The notes beneath the pieces were generated by a model. That model saw only the letters and a program-made list of their open reading frames with translations, searched no databases and was not told the DNA's origin. 38,555 nt of DNA from a virus. Taxonomy: Duplodnaviria > Heunggongvirae > Uroviricota > Caudoviricetes. Positions 3,399 through 38,555 of the stretch are shown here, in pieces (the stretch's first letter is position 1; the number at the start of each line of letters is the position of its first letter). The stretch lies in the IMG/VR virus record IMGVR_UViG_2537562091_000004; one strand, given 5' to 3'. A program made the position numbers and the translations under genes.

Positions 3399-4216
3399 AA
3401 CTGGAAGATTTACCGAAATACTACTCCCCAAAATCCCCCGGCCTGACTGATGCATCGGCCTCAACGTCGAAAGATGCGCTGAGTATCACTGATGTGATGG
3501 CCGCGCAGGGCATGACACAGAATCGGGCTGAGATGGGGTTTTCTGCGTTCCTTGGGAAAATGGGCATTAGTATGAATGACAGAGAGCGGGCAACAGAATT
3601 GCTGACAGAATATGCACTCAGTCGGTGTGATCGCGTGGCGGCGTTAAGAAAACTCCCGGCAGAAATAAAACCGGTAGTGATGCGCATTATGGCTTCGTAC
3701 GCTTTTGAGGATTATGCCCGCAGCGCAGCGAGTAAAAAGCAGTGCCCTTGTTGCTATGGGGAAAAATTTATTGAAAGCGTAGTTTTTACAAACAAGGTCC
3801 AGTATCCGGATGGTAAGCCGCCGGTATGGGCAAAGTGTACGAAAGGTGTGTATCCGTCTTACTGGGAAGAATGGAAAAAAGTCAGGGAGGTGGTAAAAGT
3901 TGCCTGTCCGGAGTGTGGCGGAAAGGGTGAGGTTTCCACCGCCTGTAAGGATTGCCGTGGGCGTGGTGTCGCCATTCATCGTGAAGAGTCGGTAAAACGT
4001 GGTATGCCTGTTATCAGAGACTGCCAGCGTTGTGGTGGTCGTGGCTGTGAAAGACTACCATCAACGGAGGCATTTAATGCCATATGCAAAGTGACGAGTG
4101 CTATCACGCTTGATACGTGGAAAAAATCAGTGAAACGCTTTTACGATACGTTGGTGGTTCGGTTTGACATTGAAGAGGCATGGGCGGAGCGGCAGTTAAA
4201 GAGGGTAACGCGATAG
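3395..4216 (+). CDS. Late-gene antiterminator Q (Qin/82-type, zinc-finger containing)
   Basis: 273 aa with CPECGGKG...CKDCRGRG...CQRCGGRG Cys clusters; ATGA overlap with rusA; immediately upstream of a promoter plus short-transcript terminator, as for Q/pR'/tR'. Confidence 0.65.
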   Translation: MKLEDLPKYYSPKSPGLTDASASTSKDALSITDVMAAQGMTQNRAEMGFSAFLGKMGISMNDRERATELLTEYALSRCDRVAALRKLPAEIKPVVMRIMASYAFEDYARSAASKKQCPCCYGEKFIESVVFTNKVQYPDGKPPVWAKCTKGVYPSYWEEWKKVREVVKVACPECGGKGEVSTACKDCRGRGVAIHREESVKRGMPVIRDCQRCGGRGCERLPSTEAFNAICKVTSAITLDTWKKSVKRFYDTLVVRFDIEEAWAERQLKRVTR

Positions 4217-4221
4217 TGTTG

Positions 4222-4249
4222 TTGATTTTTCCCGAATCTGTGGTAAATT
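4222..4249 (+). promoter_or_regulatory. Candidate late promoter pR' (TTGATT-16-TAAATT), probably with the Q-utilisation site
   Basis: Hexamers at 4222-4227 and 4244-4249, just after Q and about 50-75 nt before a strong terminator. Confidence 0.45.
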
Positions 4250-4298
4250 TGCTCTAACGATGGGCGTTTTATGCCTGGCGTTAGAAGATTTTTTACAC

Positions 4299-4320
4299 CC
4301 CGCCGCCTGGCGGGTTTTTT
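4299..4320 (+). terminator. Intrinsic terminator, tR'-like (ends a short 6S-like late leader transcript)
   Basis: cccgcc-gcct-ggcggg hairpin followed by tttttt. Confidence 0.7.
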
Positions 4321-4442
4321 ATGACTGAAATCGCGTCAGTACAGTAAACGCGCTGGTGGCGGTGAATACCTGTCTTTCAGCTTGCTGGCTTTTTCGACAA
4401 GAGTTATTGGTGTGTCACGTTAACCGGAAAAGGGAAAAAGAC

Positions 4443-4640
4443 ATGCTAAAACAGCAGGATATGACAGAAACCGCCAGAGTAGTGTTTAATGAATTAAGCG
4501 TTACCGAACCGGCGACAGTCGGGGAGATTGCACAGAATACTTACCTTTCACGCGAACGCTGCCAGTTAATACTGACCCAGCTGGTTATGGCGGGTCTGGC
4601 AGACTATCAGTTCGGTTGTTACAGACGCCTTCCGCAGTGA
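4443..4640 (+). CDS. Small hypothetical protein, possible winged-helix DNA-binding fold
   Basis: 65 aa from the internal ATG at 4443 (MLKQQDMTETARVV...TVGEIAQNTYLSRERCQLILTQLVMAGL); first ORF after tR'. Confidence 0.4.
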   Translation: MLKQQDMTETARVVFNELSVTEPATVGEIAQNTYLSRERCQLILTQLVMAGLADYQFGCYRRLPQ

Positions 4641-4651
4641 AGGCTTTTTTA
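4627..4651 (+). terminator. Intrinsic terminator overlapping the stop codon of the small ORF
   Basis: gccttc-cgcagt-gaaggc hairpin followed by ttttttatttg. Confidence 0.55.
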
Positions 4652-4790
4652 TTTGTGGTAAATGGGCGGCTGGTGGGTGTTAGGGGCACCCACCAGCCAT
4701 CTGCTCATGCGTTGGGTTCACAAGCAAACCTCAGGCCCACTGCTTTGCGCAAAAGCAGAATGAGCCTATCAGAGACAGGCTTAATGATCC

Positions 4791-5840
4791 ATGCTTAATA
4801 CTGTAAAAATATCCAGTTGTGAGTTAATCAACGCCGACTGCCTGGAATTTATCCGGTCGTTACCCGAAAATTCTGTTGACCTGATAGTCACGGACCCGCC
4901 GTACTTTAAAGTGAAGCCTGAGGGCTGGGATAACCAGTGGAAGGGCGACGATGATTACCTGAAGTGGCTGGACCAGTGTCTGGCGCAGTTCTGGCGGGTG
5001 CTGAAACCTGCCGGAAGTCTTTACCTGTTCTGTGGTCATCGCCTGGCATCTGATATCGAAATCATGATGCGTGAACGCTTCAGTGTGCTGAACCATATTA
5101 TCTGGGCGAAGCCGTCCGGACGCTGGAACGGATGCAACAAGGAAAGCCTGCGGGCGTATTTCCCCGCCACAGAGCGCATTCTGTTCGCGGAACATTATCA
5201 GGGGCCGTATCGTCCGAAAGATGCCAGGTATGCGGCGAAGGGCAGTGCACTGAAACAGCATGTGATGGCCCCGCTGATTTCTTACTTTCGTGATGCGCGC
5301 GCGGCCCTGGGGATAACGGCAAAACAGATTGCAGATGCCACAGGAAAGAAAAACATGGTGTCGCACTGGTTCAGTGCCAGTCAGTGGCAGCTACCGAACG
5401 AAAGCGATTATCTGAAATTACAGTCGCTGTTTGCCCGGGTGGCAGAAGAGAAACATCAGCGCGGTGAACTGGAAAAGCCCCACCACCAGCTGGTTGATAC
5501 GTATACGTCACTGAACCGGCAGTATGTGGAGCTGCAGAGTGAATATAAGCATCTGCGGCGGTATTTTGGTGTGACGGCGCAGGTGCCGTACACGGATGTG
5601 TGGACACATAAACCGGTGCAGTTCTATCCCGGGAAACATCCGTGCGAAAAACCGGCAGAAATGCTGCAGCAGATAATCAGCGCAAGCAGTCGTCCGGGTG
5701 ACCTGGTTGCAGATTTTTTTATGGGCTCAGGTTCAACGGTAAAAGCGGCACTGGCGCTCGGGCGTCGTGCGATTGGCGTTGAACTGGAGACCGGACGTTT
5801 TGAGCAGACAGTCAGGGAAGTTCAGGATTTAATCGTTTGA
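4791..5840 (+). CDS. DNA methyltransferase, amino-MTase (N6-adenine or N4-cytosine) with DPPY motif IV and C-terminal FxGxG SAM motif
   Basis: 349 aa; LIVTDPPYF near the N-terminus, DFFMGSGST near the C-terminus (beta-class motif order), with a long insertion between. Confidence 0.85.
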   Translation: MLNTVKISSCELINADCLEFIRSLPENSVDLIVTDPPYFKVKPEGWDNQWKGDDDYLKWLDQCLAQFWRVLKPAGSLYLFCGHRLASDIEIMMRERFSVLNHIIWAKPSGRWNGCNKESLRAYFPATERILFAEHYQGPYRPKDARYAAKGSALKQHVMAPLISYFRDARAALGITAKQIADATGKKNMVSHWFSASQWQLPNESDYLKLQSLFARVAEEKHQRGELEKPHHQLVDTYTSLNRQYVELQSEYKHLRRYFGVTAQVPYTDVWTHKPVQFYPGKHPCEKPAEMLQQIISASSRPGDLVADFFMGSGSTVKAALALGRRAIGVELETGRFEQTVREVQDLIV

Positions 5841-32859: not shown

Positions 32860-33459
32860 ATGCGTAAATTATGTGCTGTTATTTTGTCCGCAGTAGTCTG
32901 GCAGGTCGCCGCTGCTACGCCAGCGAGTGCAGCAGAACATCAGTCCACGCTGAGCGCGGGGTATCTCCATGCCTCGACGAACGTTCCCGGTAGTGATGAT
33001 CTGAACGGGATTAACGTGAAATACCGTTATGAGTTTACGGACGCGCTGGGGCTGATTACGTCCTTCAGTTATGCCAATGCTGAGGATGAGCAAAAAACGC
33101 GCTACAGCGATACCCGCTGGCATGAAGATTCCGTGCGTAACCGCTGGTTCAGCGTGATGGCGGGGCCGTCTGTACGCGTGAATGAATGGTTCAGCGCGTA
33201 TGCGATGGCGGGTGTGGCTTACAGCCGTGTATCGACTTTCTCCGGGGATTATCTCCGCGTAACTGACAACAAGGGGAAAACGCACGATGTGCTGACCGAA
33301 AGTGATGACGGTCGCCACAGCAACACGTCTCTGGCGTGGGGGGCTGGCGTGCAGTTTAACCCGACCGAATCCGTGACCATTGACCTTGCTTATGAAGGTT
33401 CCGGTAGTGGCGACTGGCGAACGGATGCATTTATTGTTGGTATCGGATACCGTTTCTGA
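32860..33459 (+). CDS. lom: Lom outer-membrane protein (Ail/Lom family beta-barrel), lysogenic-conversion gene
   Basis: 199 aa with signal peptide and ...EHQSTLSAGYLHASTN...GINVKYRYEF...FIVGIGYRF, closely resembling lambda Lom. Confidence 0.9.
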   Translation: MRKLCAVILSAVVWQVAAATPASAAEHQSTLSAGYLHASTNVPGSDDLNGINVKYRYEFTDALGLITSFSYANAEDEQKTRYSDTRWHEDSVRNRWFSVMAGPSVRVNEWFSAYAMAGVAYSRVSTFSGDYLRVTDNKGKTHDVLTESDDGRHSNTSLAWGAGVQFNPTESVTIDLAYEGSGSGDWRTDAFIVGIGYRF

Positions 33460-33610: not shown

Positions 33611-36600
33611 ATGACAGTAAAAATTTCTGGCGTGCTTAAAGATGGCACAGGAAAACCAGTACAGAACTGCACCATTGTGCTGAAGGCCAGACGAACCAGC
33701 AGCACGGTGGTGGTGAACACGGTGGCCTCTGAAAATCCGGATGAAGCCGGACGTTACAGCATGGATGTTGAGCATGGTCAGTACAGCGTCACCCTGCTGG
33801 TTGAAGGTTTTCCGCCTTCACATGCCGGGACCATTACCGTCTATGAAGGTTCCAGACCAGGTACGCTGAATGATTTTCTCGGTGCCATGACGGAGGATGA
33901 TGTCCGACCGGAGGCACTGCGCCGCTTTGAGCAGATGGTGGAAGAGGTGTCACGTAACGCCTCCGCGGTTGCACAGAATACGGCAGCCGCGAAAAAATCA
34001 GCCAGCGATGCCAGTGCATCAGCCAGCGAGGCGGCAACTCATGCAACCGATGCTGCAGCCTCAGCACGTGCCGCCAGCACGTCAGCCGGACAGGCCGCGT
34101 CGTCGGCTCAGTCAGCGTCTTCCAGCGCAGGAACGGCATCGACAAAGGCCCGTGAAGCAGCAAAAAGTGCTGCTGCTGCAGAGTCATCAAAAAGCGCGGC
34201 AGCTACCAGCGCCAGTGCCGCGAAAACGTCAGAAACGAATGCCGCAGCATCACAAAAATCGGCAGCCACTTCTGCATCCACAGCGACCACGAAGGCGTCA
34301 GAAGCTGCCACCTCGGCACGGGGTGCGGCGGCCTCAAAAGAGGCAGCGAAATCTTCAGAAACGAATGCATCATCAAGTGCCAGTAGTGCAGCTTCCTCGG
34401 CAACGGCGGCAGGAAATTCCGCGAAGGCGGCAAAAACGTCCGAGACGAACGCTAAGTCTTCTGAAACAGCAGCGGGACAGAGCGCCTCAGCTGCGGCAGG
34501 TTCAAAAACAGCGGCTGCATTATCTGCCAGTGCCGCGTCAACAAGTGCCGGGCAGGCCTCAGCCAGTGCCACCGCCGCCGGAAAATCGGCAGAAAGCGCC
34601 GCATCATCCGCTTCAACAGCCACAACGAAGGCTGGCAAAGCCACTGAGCAAGCCACTGCAGCAGCGAGGTCTGCTTCTGCAGCAAAAACCTCTGAAACAA
34701 ATGCAAAGACTTCAGCAGACAATGCTGCTTCCTCTAAGGCGGCAGCCGCATCGTCAGCCAGTTCAGCGGCGTCATCGGCATCATCTGCGTCTGCTTCAAA
34801 AGATGAGGCGACCAGACAAGCGTCAGCAGCGAAAGGTAGTGCCACGACAGCAACAACGAAAGCATCAGAGGCGGCAGGCAGTGCGACGGCTGCATCTCAG
34901 AGCAAAGTTGCTGCTGAATCCGCGGCAACGCGCGCCGAGACAGCAGCAAAACGGGCAGAGGATATTGCATCCGCCGTGGCGCTGGAGGATGCGAGCACGA
35001 CGAAAAAGGGGATAGTACAGCTCAGCAGTGCAACAAACAGCACCAGTGAAAAGCTGGCGGCAACGCCAAAGGCAGTTAAAACTGTTAAAGATAGTTCAGT
35101 TCAAAAAACTGGCGACACAATGGGAGGGCAGTTAAAAATCAGCACGATAAATGCTCTTCGAATATTCAACCAAGCCTTTGGCCTTATTTTTAGGCGTTCC
35201 GAAGATCATCTTCATCTTATTCCGACTAATGAAGGGGAGGGGGAAAATGGAGACATCGGTTCATTAAGACCATTCTCTATAAACTTAAGATCAGGGTTGG
35301 TGTCCATCGGTAATGGACTAAAAGTTGGTGGTAGTGTTACTGGTAATTTGACCGGAAACGCAGATACTGCGACCAAGATCAAGACAGCACGTAAGATTGG
35401 GGGCGTGGCATTTGATGGATCGGCAGATATCAACTTGCCTGGAGTCAACGCTACCGGTAATCAAAACACTACAGGTAATGCTGCGACCGCCACGAAACTT
35501 CAGGCAGCCAGAACGATTAACGGTGTGTCATTTGATGGTAGTGCAAATATCACATTGACCCCTTCAAATATTGGGGCATTGGCATTAACTGGAGGGACTC
35601 TTTCAGGTGGTTTAACTGCTGCTGGTGAGGTTATTTCAAGGTCAGCAAATGGTCTGCGTATTGCCTATGGCAACTATGGATTCTTTATCCGAAATGATGG
35701 ATCAAACACATATTTTATGTTGACAGATTCGGGTAACAGTCTTGGTACGCACAATAGCTTAAGGCCGTTTATAATTAGTAACCATACTGGCAATGTTACA
35801 ATTGCAACTAAATTAAACGCGAGTGGTGGTATCACTGGATCTTTATCGGGTAATGCAAGCACAGCAACCAAATTGCAAACTGCAAGGACAATTAACGGCG
35901 TAAAATTTGACGGCTCGGCAAATATTGAAGCGTTTCCGCCAGGTGTTCCGCTGCCGTGGCCATCAGATACACCACCTGCAGGTTATGCAATCATGCAGGG
36001 GCAGACGTTTGATAAGGCAGCATATCCGAAACTGGCTATTGCCTATCCTTCAGGTGTTATTCCAGATATGCGCGGCTGGACAATCAAGGGCAAACCCGCC
36101 AGTGGCCGGGCCGTATTGTCTCAGGAACAGGACGGCATTAAATCGCACACCCACAGCGCCAGCGCATCCAGTACGGATTTGGGGACGAAAACCACATCGT
36201 CGTTTGATTACGGCACTAAATCCACGAATAACACCGGGGCGCATACGCACAGTCTGAGTGGCTCTACGGGGTCTGCCGGCGTTCATACTCATGGTAATGG
36301 TATTCGTTGGCCAGGAGGCGGCGGTTCTGCGTTAGCATTTTATGATGGCGGTGGGTTCACTTATGTCCAGAATTCACAGTATCAAGTAAGCCCGGAGACT
36401 TCTTCCTATAGATCGTATTATCAACGTATTCAGACACAGTCAGCAGGTGCTCATACCCACTCGCTGTCTGGTACTGCAGCAAGTTCTGGCGCACATGCAC
36501 ATACTGTAGGTATTGGTGCGCATACGCACTCCGTTGCGATTGGTTCACATGGACACACCATCACCGTTAACGCTGCGGGTAACGCGGAAAACACCGTCAA

Positions 36601-36637
36601 AAACATCGCATTTAACTATATTGTGAGGCTTGCATAA
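33611..36637 (+). CDS. stf: Side tail fibre protein (StfR/Stf-like) with long Ala/Ser-rich repeat region and His-rich C-terminal domain
   Basis: 1008 aa; N-terminus [22 protein letters not shown]..., A/S-rich repeats in the middle, C-terminal GAHTHSLSG...[31 protein letters not shown]. Confidence 0.85.
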
Positions 36638-37221
36638 TGGCATTCAGAATGAGTGAACAAGCACGGACCATAAAAATTTATAATCTGCTGGCCGGAACTA
36701 ATGAATTTATTGGTGAAGGTGACGCATATATTCCGCCTCATACAGGTCTGCCAGCAAACAGTACCGATATTGCACCACCAGATATTCCTGCTGGCTTTGT
36801 GGCTGTTTTCAACAGTGATGAGGCATCGTGGCATCTCGTTGAAGACCATCGGGGTAAAACGGTTTATGACGTAGCGTCAGGGGACGAGTTATTTATTTCT
36901 GAACTCGGTCCGTTACCGGAAAATGTTACCTGGTTATCGCCGGAAGGGGAGTTTTAGAAGTGGAACGGCACAGCCTGGGTGAAGGATACGGAAGCAGAAA
37001 AACTGTTCCGGATCCGGGAGGCGGAAGAAACAAAAAACAACCTGATGCAGGTAGCCAGTGAGCATATTGCGCCGCTTCAGGATGCTGCAGATCTGGAAAT
37101 TGCAACGGAGGAAGAAACCTCATTGCTGGAAGCCTGGAAAAAGTATCGGGTATTGCTGAACCGTGTTGATACATCAACTGCACCTGATATTGAGTGGCCT
37201 GTAAATCCTGTCAGGGAGTAA
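36637..37221 (+). pseudogene. tfa: Tail fibre assembly protein Tfa interrupted by an in-frame TAG (36955-36957)
   Basis: ORFs 36637..36957 and 36979..37221 are in the same frame; lambda-Tfa-like sequence is continuous across the stop (…[24 protein letters not shown]…). Confidence 0.75.
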
Positions 37222-37270
37222 TCATTGGGATTATGCCGCAGCACGTCTTAAGCAAGAACGTGCTGCGGTT
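37056..37270 (+). repeat. Direct repeat copy 1 (tfa 3' end plus downstream hairpin ccgcagcacgt...acgtgctgcgg)
   Basis: About 215 bp region repeated at 38106-38320 with high identity, including the imperfect palindrome after the stop codon. Confidence 0.7.
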
Positions 37271-37275
37271 GGATG

Positions 37276-37944
37276 CTATTTTTTCCCTGAAGCGGAAAAC
37301 ATTACTACAGTACCTTGAACCTTGGTTTTAACATTCTCGAAATGCTCTGAGAGTATATGTGTTAAGCCTTCTTCGGAATCTTTTGTGTTTGAAAAGATGC
37401 CTTTCTGATTGTAAATGCGCATCAGTTTTTGACCGAAGCTATTGTGCACAACTCCATCGCCAAGAATTGTGGCTCCGTATAGAGTTCCATCGTCAGTTAA
37501 GGCCTGCGCCGCATTGCGTATTACACAGCTTTTTGTAGATATATTTCCAGGCAGGCAGTGAAGAAGGTAAAACATGGAAATGGAATCAAATTGACCATGT
37601 AACGCCGCGGGATAAGGTTCAAAAACATCATGGCTAATTTTATGTTTAATTTTTGATTCCCCAGCCCTTGTAGATGCCGCGTTCAGGCTAGCTTCGTTCA
37701 AATCCATTAAAGATATCAGACTACTCTCAGGTACGTGAGTAAGGTAAAACCCAGTTCCAACACCAATATCCAGATGGTTGTTACCTACATGTTCCAGAAA
37801 GTGTGGAAGAAGGTGTTCCTTTGTAGGACATCCCCATGCAAGCCGATTTGATACTCCCAAAACCCACCAGTCATAAAGCTTTAGGGTAAGTGGTGTATAA
37901 ATTTTAGCCCCATCATCTGTGTTTTTTTTCATTGATTTCACCAT
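37276..37944 (-). CDS. Class I SAM-dependent methyltransferase (AT-rich cargo gene on the opposite strand)
   Basis: 222 aa; SAM-binding motif I LDIGVGTGFY; lower GC than neighbours; substrate cannot be assigned from sequence. Confidence 0.7.
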   Translation of the reverse strand: MVKSMKKNTDDGAKIYTPLTLKLYDWWVLGVSNRLAWGCPTKEHLLPHFLEHVGNNHLDIGVGTGFYLTHVPESSLISLMDLNEASLNAASTRAGESKIKHKISHDVFEPYPAALHGQFDSISMFYLLHCLPGNISTKSCVIRNAAQALTDDGTLYGATILGDGVVHNSFGQKLMRIYNQKGIFSNTKDSEEGLTHILSEHFENVKTKVQGTVVMFSASGKK

Positions 37945-38000
37945 GTTATAGTTTTATTTGTGAATTAAATCAATTATGGCGATGAATTACAAGGGGTTAA

Positions 38001-38270
38001 ATGCTGCCGCAGCATAGCGATATTGAAATAGCCTGGTATGCTTCGATACAGCAGGAGCCGAATGGCTGGAAGATCGTCACCACACAGTTCTACATCCAGG
38101 AATTCAGTGAGTATATTGCGCCACTGCAGGATGCTGTAGATCTGGAAATCGCAACGGAGGAAGAAAGATCGTTGCTGGAGGCATGGAATAAATATCGGGT
38201 ATTGTTGAATCGTGTTGATACATCAACTGCACCTGATATTGAGTGGCCTGCAAATCCTGTCAGGGAGTAA
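38001..38270 (+). CDS. Truncated alternative tail-fibre-assembly (Tfa) C-terminal domain ORF
   Basis: 89 aa; last ~50 aa ([52 protein letters not shown]) duplicate the tfa C-terminus; N-terminus is unrelated. Confidence 0.45.
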
Positions 38271-38320
38271 TCATTGGGATTATGCCGCAGACACGTCGTA
38301 TGCAGGAACGTGCTGCGGTT
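38106..38320 (+). repeat. Direct repeat copy 2 (tfa 3' end plus hairpin)
   Basis: Matches 37056-37270; the hairpin arm carries one extra base relative to copy 1. Confidence 0.7.
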
Positions 38321-38384
38321 AGTTTGTGAGCTTTCGATAGTGGTTGTTATTTTTGCCCTTATTTGTTCCGGAGGCCATGGTTCA

Positions 38385-38555
38385 ATGGTCCGTCTGCCCC
38401 CTGTGGTGATGTCAGCAAAATCAGCCACTGCGCGAACCACAATAGCCCGGGAAGATGCTGAAGATCACCAGGTAAAGCTATCAGCGCAGAAACTGGAAGA
38501 ACTGCTCGCATCAATGGTTAAGGATGAGGTTGATCGCAATGATGGGATTTATTGA
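38385..38555 (+). CDS. Small hypothetical protein (about 56 aa) ending exactly at the window edge
   Basis: ATG at 38385 preceded by GGAGG; MVRLPPVVMSAKSATARTTIAREDAEDHQVKLSAQKLEELLASMVKDEVDRNDGIY; stop TGA at 38553-38555. Confidence 0.3.
   Translation: MVRLPPVVMSAKSATARTTIAREDAEDHQVKLSAQKLEELLASMVKDEVDRNDGIY

Follow-up and report, generated by a model that had tools for sequence, protein, structure and literature searches.

Organization of the segment between tfa and the prophage end

We analyzed the right-hand part of a 38,555-nt stretch of viral DNA (Caudoviricetes; IMG/VR record IMGVR_UViG_2537562091_000004), referred to here as the window. This region corresponds to the right end of an ompW-integrated lambdoid prophage, and the final 5 kb of the window contain, in order, lom, the side tail fiber gene stf, the tail fiber assembly gene tfa, a minus-strand open reading frame (ORF) of 222 aa, an ORF of 89 aa, and a gene fragment that runs off the window. 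Our focus is on the segment that begins with the lambda-type tfa gene (36637 to 37221, plus strand). Downstream of tfa, a gene for a class I S-adenosylmethionine (SAM)-dependent methyltransferase of the ybcY type (phrog_2132; 37276 to 37944, minus strand; 222 aa) is separated by an AT-rich divergent spacer with candidate sigma-70 promoters (37945 to 38000, minus strand) from the tfaX-type 89-aa ORF (phrog_2341; 38001 to 38270, plus strand). A unique core at 37264 to 38087 comprises the methyltransferase gene, the spacer, and the beginning (~29 codons) of a phrog_3893-type gene. An earlier note on this DNA, made from the sequence alone, had proposed that the methyltransferase gene is cargo brought in or exchanged through homologous recombination within tfa or, alternatively, that the region is the remnant of a tail fiber switching region.

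The core is bracketed by two direct copies of the tfa 3' end together with the hairpin that follows it. The left arm (37045 to 37270, plus strand) contains hairpin 1 and the last 59 codons of tfa, i.e., its conserved C-terminal domain, which match Caudo_TAP; the right arm (38094 to 38320, plus strand) contains a relic tfa 3' end and hairpin 2. The repeats align in two blocks, 37045-37241/38094-38290 (197 nt, 90% identity) and 37242-37270/38292-38320 (29 nt, 90% identity), which are offset by a 1-nt indel and together make up one direct repeat of 226/227 bp with ~90% identity. The coding part is in frame in both copies, with 158 of 177 positions identical, a synonymous divergence (dS) of 0.29, and a ratio of nonsynonymous to synonymous divergence (dN/dS) of 0.26. 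At such length and identity, the repeat cannot be due to chance. The ~215-bp repeats that had been described at 37056-37270 and 38106-38320 are thus real, and each extends ~11 nt farther to the left. The hairpin that had been noted after tfa is also present twice. Hairpin 1 (37236 to 37268), which lies between the convergent tfa and methyltransferase genes, has perfect 11-bp arms (37236-37246 and 37258-37268), a folding energy of −32.2 kcal/mol, and z-scores of −5.35 on the plus strand and −4.57 on the minus strand; hairpin 2 (38285 to 38318) has a bulged base and is weaker (z-score of −1.9). A T run is present near hairpin 1 on the plus strand only. Based on these features, hairpin 1 is a probable transcript end for both tfa and the methyltransferase gene.

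By gene order, strands, and junctions, this arrangement is already known as tfaD-ybcY-tfaX (b0561-b0563) of the cryptic prophage DLP12 in Escherichia coli K-12, where the order is tfaD, ybcY (minus strand, pseudogene), tfaX, appY, and ompT. The 2 loci have 96.5% DNA identity over 36783-38247 (1465 bp) and the same promoter hexamers in the spacer. In DLP12, ybcY is frameshifted, tfaD is N-terminally truncated, and the right arm ends early, giving a TfaX of 61 aa, and is followed by appY-ompT, whereas in the window the methyltransferase gene is intact and the right arm includes the full tfa end and the hairpin, after which come a DUF4376 relic and, at ompW, the end of the prophage.

In a set of 5426 complete E. 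coli genomes, 3791 (about 70%) contain at least 80% of the module at 37101-38225, and 1113 contain the exact stretch from tfa to the window end (36600-38555). The methyltransferase is also present in 14 isolated lambdoid phages, and the annotators of PhiR26_1 named its gene YbcY. The module follows a lambda-type stf-tfa pair in the window, PhiR26_1, and K-12; it follows non-lambda fiber genes in ev243 and 2G7b, where 121 nt of relic tfa are all that is present on the left; in Kati and Turner, a pin-like invertase gene precedes it; and it is also found in a P2-like myovirus prophage at smpB. The earlier note had named a conserved gene lacking flanking repeats as contrary to its proposal; in E. 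coli, the methyltransferase gene is very widespread, but tfa fragments nearly always lie on both sides. We note that, in Kati (5710 to 7468 of L005) and Turner, the 1.7 kb between tfa and the cassette hold a pin-like DNA invertase gene and an 88-aa ORF, and that the left homology of the cassette begins exactly at the hairpin (37236 in the window). In the smpB prophage (L019 to L021, about 3500-5343), the stf 3' end, tfa, the methyltransferase gene, and the 89-aa ORF are shared with the window (36500-38342, 92.6% identity) and followed by dinI; in another sequence (L018), the cassette directly follows a P2 gpD homolog, with no fiber genes. A literature search found no paper about the cassette; mentions of ybcY and tfaX are limited to their use as landmarks near ompT, a promoter list from systematic evolution of ligands by exponential enrichment (SELEX), and a list of mutants under Hha overexpression, in which the growth effect of the ybcY mutant was not significantly different.

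The ybcY-type methyltransferase and its putative promoter region

The earlier note had described a minus-strand class I SAM-dependent methyltransferase with the motif LDIGVGTGFY. This assignment is secure based on Pfam, PHROG, the alignment of homologs, an AF2 model, and fold matches. The ORF matches the Pfam families Methyltransf_12, Methyltransf_23, Methyltransf_25, and Methyltransf_11 above their cut-offs. The motif I loop, LDIGVGTG, is at residues 58 to 65, and D59, G61, G63, T64, and G65 are invariant across 32 homologs. D81 (in LMDLN) is also invariant and located at the end of a predicted strand (residues 76 to 81); at this position, the end of strand 2, it would contact the ribose of SAM. 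The AF2 model (pLDDT of 90.5) consists of a single 222-aa domain without a target-recognition domain and has the seven-stranded alpha/beta fold of class I methyltransferases. We identified 31 homologs (56 to 90% identity) in Enterobacterales, Aeromonas, Shewanella, and Pasteurellaceae that align without large gaps and share the invariant blocks YDWWVL, HxDxGxGTG, DxN, HD, DS, YLxHCL, and a C-terminal YNxKGIFxN. The sequences suggest that the true start of the protein is M5, with the ATG at 37932.

The homologs with 56 to 65% identity in Salmonella, Enterobacter, and Yersinia are encoded by solitary chromosomal genes in non-phage neighborhoods that have nothing in common. Because these genes are solitary and their neighborhoods unrelated, the phage appears to have captured its gene from a chromosomal family without operon partners.

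Classification by profile and structure searches, as proposed in the earlier note, places the protein among generic small-molecule methyltransferases, without assigning it to a family defined by substrate. No NCBIfam equivalog was reached, and the models for CpaM, RquA, and PmtA gave only 16 to 18 bits against cut-offs of 175 to 390. Sequence and profile searches of the PDB returned only JHAMT and UbiG, with E values of 1e-3 to 8e-6. The fold neighbors are natural-product, lipid, and metabolite methyltransferases together with a few tRNA enzymes that do not rank better. Identity to known small-molecule class I enzymes (JHAMT, UbiG/Coq5, bacterial PmtA, and natural-product C-, N-, and O-methyltransferases) is only 11 to 21%. 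As no family cut-off was reached and the ranking was flat, no substrate can be transferred from known methyltransferases, and comparisons with NCBIfam, the PDB, folds, and gene neighborhoods allowed no inference of one. Bacterial phospholipid N-methyltransferase PmtA was considered and rejected, as its family model was not reached and there is no specific structural similarity. Among the PADLOC defense models, only mad2 was hit (E value of 0.009, 12.9 bits), with no stretch exceeding the threshold on its own. The fold, as modeled, is that of a generic small-molecule methyltransferase, and our working guess for its activity in the lysogen is methylation of a small metabolite or a lipid-like compound.

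Orphan DNA methyltransferase genes are frequent in phage genomes, and exchangeable effector loci of lambdoid prophages are well established in pathogenic E. coli; the gene analyzed here occupies a locus where such prophages carry effector genes. Nevertheless, we regard it as extremely unlikely that the protein is a nucleic-acid methyltransferase with an anti-restriction or epigenetic function or a host-targeting effector methyltransferase such as NleE. Only generic small-molecule Pfam families were matched, and no DNA-methylase or NleE family was found in Pfam or NCBIfam at an E value of ≤0.01, in agreement with the earlier note, which had seen no resemblance to NleE. Moreover, the best solved sequence relatives are JHAMT and UbiG, no DNA-methylase or NleE structure is among the top fold matches listed, a single domain of 222 aa leaves no target-recognition domain, and the homologs with 56 to 65% identity in three genera lie in chromosomal, non-phage contexts.

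The spacer upstream of the methyltransferase gene contains two candidate promoters, TTGATT-17-TATAAC at 37973-37945 and TTAACC-16-CATAAT at 38000-37973. Genomic SELEX in K-12 assigned the same hexamers to ybcY in an RpoD-binding peak with H-NS (PMC3946193), and TTGATT-17-TATAAC in the window spacer matches the K-12 assignment exactly. We infer that the methyltransferase gene has its own sigma-70 promoter, which would be damped by H-NS in the window strain.

The gene also has several of the traits by which prophage accessory genes ("morons") are recognized. Its GC content is 41.0%, compared to 52.8% for the window and 52% for stf, which agrees with the AT-rich segment of the earlier note and represents a deviant base composition. 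Its presence at one site is variable, as three genomes have the same ompW-site prophage without the cassette. Its orientation is opposite to that of the late operon. In these respects, it resembles morons at the right end of lambdoid prophages (the b region of lambda and the effector loci of enterohemorrhagic and enteropathogenic E. coli), which are likewise extra low-GC genes after stf-tfa by the attachment site with variable presence among related prophages; like those, it would also be transcribed independently. The cargo here differs from them in being a cytoplasmic-type small-molecule methyltransferase rather than a secreted effector or outer-membrane protein and in having repeated tfa ends on both sides instead of a free position in the b region.

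The 89-aa ORF and probable recombination in the tfa-derived arms

The earlier note had interpreted the 89-aa ORF as a second, truncated tfa C-terminal ORF. The C-terminal tfa end is indeed present; however, the ORF is not simply truncated. It matches Caudo_TAP over residues 32 to 86 only (model positions 76 to 130 of 131), while its first ~30 to 35 codons correspond to the N-terminus of phrog_3893 and are fused in frame to the last 54 to 59 codons of tfa. Thus, the variable fiber-binding N-domain of Tfa is absent, the N-terminal 35 residues being of phrog_3893 type, and the ORF does not qualify as a Tfa protein. In a near-identical E. coli chromosome (L001), which has a single mismatch to the window over 2555 nt, the annotation pipeline PGAP labels 38094-38270 as "tail fiber assembly protein, missing N-terminus."

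The origin of the N-terminal part is suggested by two Citrobacter freundii contigs (L022 and L024), in which the core at 37264-38087 is 91.5% identical and has no tfa flanks on either side. There, dinI and the methyltransferase gene, both on the minus strand, are followed by a divergent 80-aa ORF that matches phrog_3893 over its full length. As the core is found with a divergent phrog_3893 gene in Citrobacter, the second "tfa ORF" of the window is a chimera of a phrog_3893 start and a tfa 3' end, and the Citrobacter locus looks like the pre-fusion state of the cassette. phrog_3893 is a usual gene to the right of tail fiber genes: in HK225, the order is tail fiber, tail assembly protein, dinI, phrog_3893-type ORF, invertase, and attP, and relatives are also found in mEp390 and in temperate phages of Klebsiella, Erwinia, and Cronobacter. 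At the left junction, the core meets the tfa hairpin end at a 6-nt microhomology, TGCGGT (37263-37268); at the right junction, there is a short microhomology around 38095-38106. We also observed that the Citrobacter methyltransferase (90% aa identity) is the closest copy outside E. coli and is encoded in a prophage-like remnant near purB, where the phrog_3893 gene is intact and a UmuD-like fragment adjoins.

Several properties could speak for a functional mini-Tfa, in which the conserved trimerization domain would serve as an alternative chaperone subunit or a dominant-negative one, for instance against tail fiber assembly in co-resident or superinfecting phages. The ORF is open and in frame, has its own PHROG family (phrog_2341; E value of 1.7e-60), is kept as an 82%-identical 89-aa version in the P2-like prophage with a dN/dS of 0.16 in the C-terminal part, and in K-12 a divergent RpoD-binding promoter is assigned to tfaX. 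We nonetheless consider such a function very unlikely. In the same comparison, dN/dS is 0.69 in the N-terminal part, based on 8 substitutions, and functional tfa alleles can account for a low value in the C-terminal part, either by descent or by conversion. The fiber-binding N-domain is missing, and the ORF is split in 2G7b. Database variants of the tfaX type have lengths of 55, 61, 82, 89, 101, and 108 aa with at least 5 alternative ends, and the final 12 residues of Tfa are missing from the most common DLP12-type forms. The −10 element assigned to tfaX in K-12 (TTAAAT) overlaps the ATG and, therefore, such a transcript would not include the start codon. A homology search for longer relatives of the 89-aa ORF yielded only short variants in E. 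coli and Shigella. Altogether, the chimeric ORF fits a recombination scar rather than a gene.

The arms and the core differ in their divergence. Compared to the copy in the P2-like prophage, tfa is 89.6% identical (dS of 0.38) and the right arm 84% (dS of 0.58), while hairpin 1, the methyltransferase gene, and the spacer are 96 to 98.7% identical (dS of 0.028). Mismatch maps for five comparators likewise show a core with ~99% identity from about 37207 to 38000, flanked by densely substituted tfa-derived sequences with breakpoints that vary by comparator. Across contexts, the tfa-derived arms are mosaics with 80 to 90% identity. The conservation of the core over very different phage contexts bears out its description as cargo.

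To find cassette-less alleles, we used a synthetic query in which the repeat was collapsed. Three genomes (L015 to L017) have the same ompW prophage with tfa followed directly by the DUF4376 relic and no cassette. In these genomes, the tfa end resembles copy 1 up to 37202 and copy 2 from the hairpin on, and the switch points differ among the three. These alleles suggest that the cassette-less and cassette-bearing states are separated by one homologous exchange in the arms, in either direction. Comparing what lies between the tfa repeats, as the earlier note had proposed, thus recovered cassette-bearing, cassette-less, and tfa-free versions, and the conserved core, the mosaic arms, the cassette-less hybrids, and the tfa-free Citrobacter core all favor its suggestion of an insertion or exchange within tfa by homologous recombination.

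Mosaic evolution of tail fiber and tfa genes through recombination at conserved segments was reportedly described by Haggard-Ljungquist in 1992 and Sandmeier in 1994. As in that work, a conserved C-terminal tfa segment common to lambdoid and P2-like phages marks the breakpoints here; unlike in that work, the segment flanks and mobilizes a non-fiber cargo and not host-range determinants. Tfa has a variable N-domain that binds the fiber and a conserved C-domain that drives trimerization (PMC9608196). The arms correspond to this trimerization domain, which explains why otherwise different phages share homology in them.

Based on these data, we consider it likely that the region is a prophage accessory, or moron, cassette of the ybcY/tfaX type that is exchanged via tfa-derived arms. 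The cargo would be the ~0.82-kb low-GC core with a stand-alone gene for a small-molecule methyltransferase, which would have its own sigma-70-type promoter, be transcribed against the late operon, and probably be repressed to a low level by H-NS. The ancestral state would be a temperate phage with the methyltransferase gene just to the right of the tail fiber genes and a small phrog_3893 gene in divergent orientation next to it. From there, the flanks of the cargo would have been altered by two non-homologous joins at microhomologies, the order of which we infer. One would have placed the tfa terminator hairpin against the 3' end of the methyltransferase gene, and the other would have fused the first phrog_3893 codons to the 3' third of another tfa, leaving the cargo between two direct copies of the tfa C-terminal domain and hairpin. 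The chaperone genes are variable outside this conserved tfa segment, which could make the arms a portable source of homology: the cassette would be inserted, replaced, or deleted by RecA- or Red-type recombination with any phage that has a lambda-type tfa, and recombination from arm to arm would delete it and leave one hybrid tfa.

A direct repeat around foreign low-GC DNA superficially also resembles the outcome of a simple tandem duplication of the tfa 3' end in situ, with a mobile methyltransferase element later inserting between the two copies. This is a very improbable history. The copies differ by 10%, with a dS of 0.29, and since K-12 DLP12, several phage genera, and the P2-like prophage share these junctions, the arrangement predates the window prophage. 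The right junction is inside a phage gene (phrog_3893) and not at an element end, and the core is not flanked by terminal inverted repeats, a transposase gene, or an integrase gene. A transposon or integron-like element was likewise rejected, as no terminal inverted repeats or mobility genes were found around the core.

The second proposal of the earlier note, a switching-region remnant without an invertase, has next to no probability. In this scenario, the region would derive from a Din-type (Gin/Cin/Pin) invertible tail fiber segment that lost its invertase, and the two tfa ends would come from alternative fiber/chaperone cassettes. Din-family segments (the G segment of Mu, C of P1, and P of e14) do have duplicated tfa-type sequences by fiber genes, and relatives of the window prophage carry pin-like invertases near tfa, located between tfa and the cassette in Kati and after the phrog_3893 gene in HK225. 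A weak AACC-NN-GGTT-like core (37317-37328) has an inverted but imperfect counterpart at 38375-38385. In contrast to Din-family segments, however, the tfa copies in the window are direct repeats, no inverted repeat of ≥20 nt is present within 34000-38555, and L001 has no invertase gene between tfa and the prophage end at the truncated ompW. The two candidate cores are poor matches to the gix consensus, with TT as the central dinucleotide in one and AT in the other. An alternative stf 3' end is absent, and the right arm is joined to a phrog_3893 fragment and not to fiber sequence. Finally, a modeled inversion junction was found in 0 of the 5426 genomes, and no crossover sites beyond the weak core-like matches are evident. 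As an observation in its own right, the imperfect inverted 11-mer pair TTGAACCTTGG/CCATGGTTCAA (37315-37328 and 38375-38385), which resembles the Din-family AACC-NN-GGTT core, has one copy in the 3' end of the methyltransferase gene and the other in the downstream relic.

Several observations weigh against the proposed moron cassette or parts of it. ybcY is a pseudogene in K-12 and, therefore, dispensable there. Consensus scans of the spacer find no more promoter-like sites than in shuffled sequence, and the support for the promoter is in vitro RNA polymerase binding in K-12, which is a different strain. Hairpin 1, which lies 8 nt past the methyltransferase stop codon, has no canonical U tract on the minus strand. 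The structural matches of the methyltransferase are spread flat over dozens of enzyme types. The direction of the ompW polymorphism can be read in two ways, as hybrid single-copy alleles are compatible with an ancestral empty site as well as with a deletion product, and the exchange is deduced from alleles.

Prophage context and biological meaning

Upstream of the cassette, lom (32860 to 33459) belongs to the lambdoid prophage right end, and stf (33611 to 36637, plus strand) is an ORF of 1008 aa with the label "prophage tail fiber N-terminal domain-containing protein" in L001. Between 33900 and 35000 (e.g., 34217-34711), stf contains a long low-complexity region rich in Ala, Ser, and Thr, with a GC content of up to 62% and five diverged copies of a 33-nt unit. 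In the tfa gene of the window, an in-frame TAG at 36955-36957 changes Q107 to a stop codon, while all comparators have CAG. This is the sole difference from L001 over the 2555 nt, and the L001 tfa is intact (585 nt, WP_000885578.1). The Tfa chaperone of the window is probably inactive, and the side tail fibers of this prophage may be unable to assemble, as in laboratory lambda.

Downstream of the right arm, a tail fiber-related relic with DUF4376 (38367 to 38555, plus strand) matches phrog_1141 (tail fiber) and phrog_7703, has an internal stop, lacks its N-terminus, and runs off the window. It is the third such relic in a pile of fiber-gene remnants that extends from tfa to the prophage end. 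In L001, the prophage ends ~300 bp past the window at a truncated ompW beside yciE and the trp operon. In one of the cassette-less genomes (L016, 5934-6763), an extra Rha-family regulator gene and a gene of the ash family separate the DUF4376 relic from the truncated ompW, which is another indel polymorphism at the prophage end.

A more far-reaching possibility is that both parts of the cassette are functional, with the 89-aa protein as a decoy that would poison the Tfa trimers of lambda-type or P2-type co-resident or superinfecting phages and the methyltransferase modifying an envelope lipid or metabolite. We see only an extremely slim chance for it; if true, the tfa-derived arms would be a hitch-hiking device that moves a conversion module between unrelated phage families.

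Nothing points to a new kind of system, and the importance of the finding is modest. The main question raised by the module is that of the substrate of the ybcY-family enzyme. Natural isolates very commonly carry an intact copy of the gene, whereas K-12 has a broken one; this may be the reason that it has never been studied. For the evolution of temperate phages, the proposed cassette would be a clean and well-documented example of prophage cargo that rides on the most conserved piece of a tail fiber chaperone gene. Ordinary homologous recombination could in this way disseminate, exchange, or remove such cargo among lambdoid and P2-like phages.

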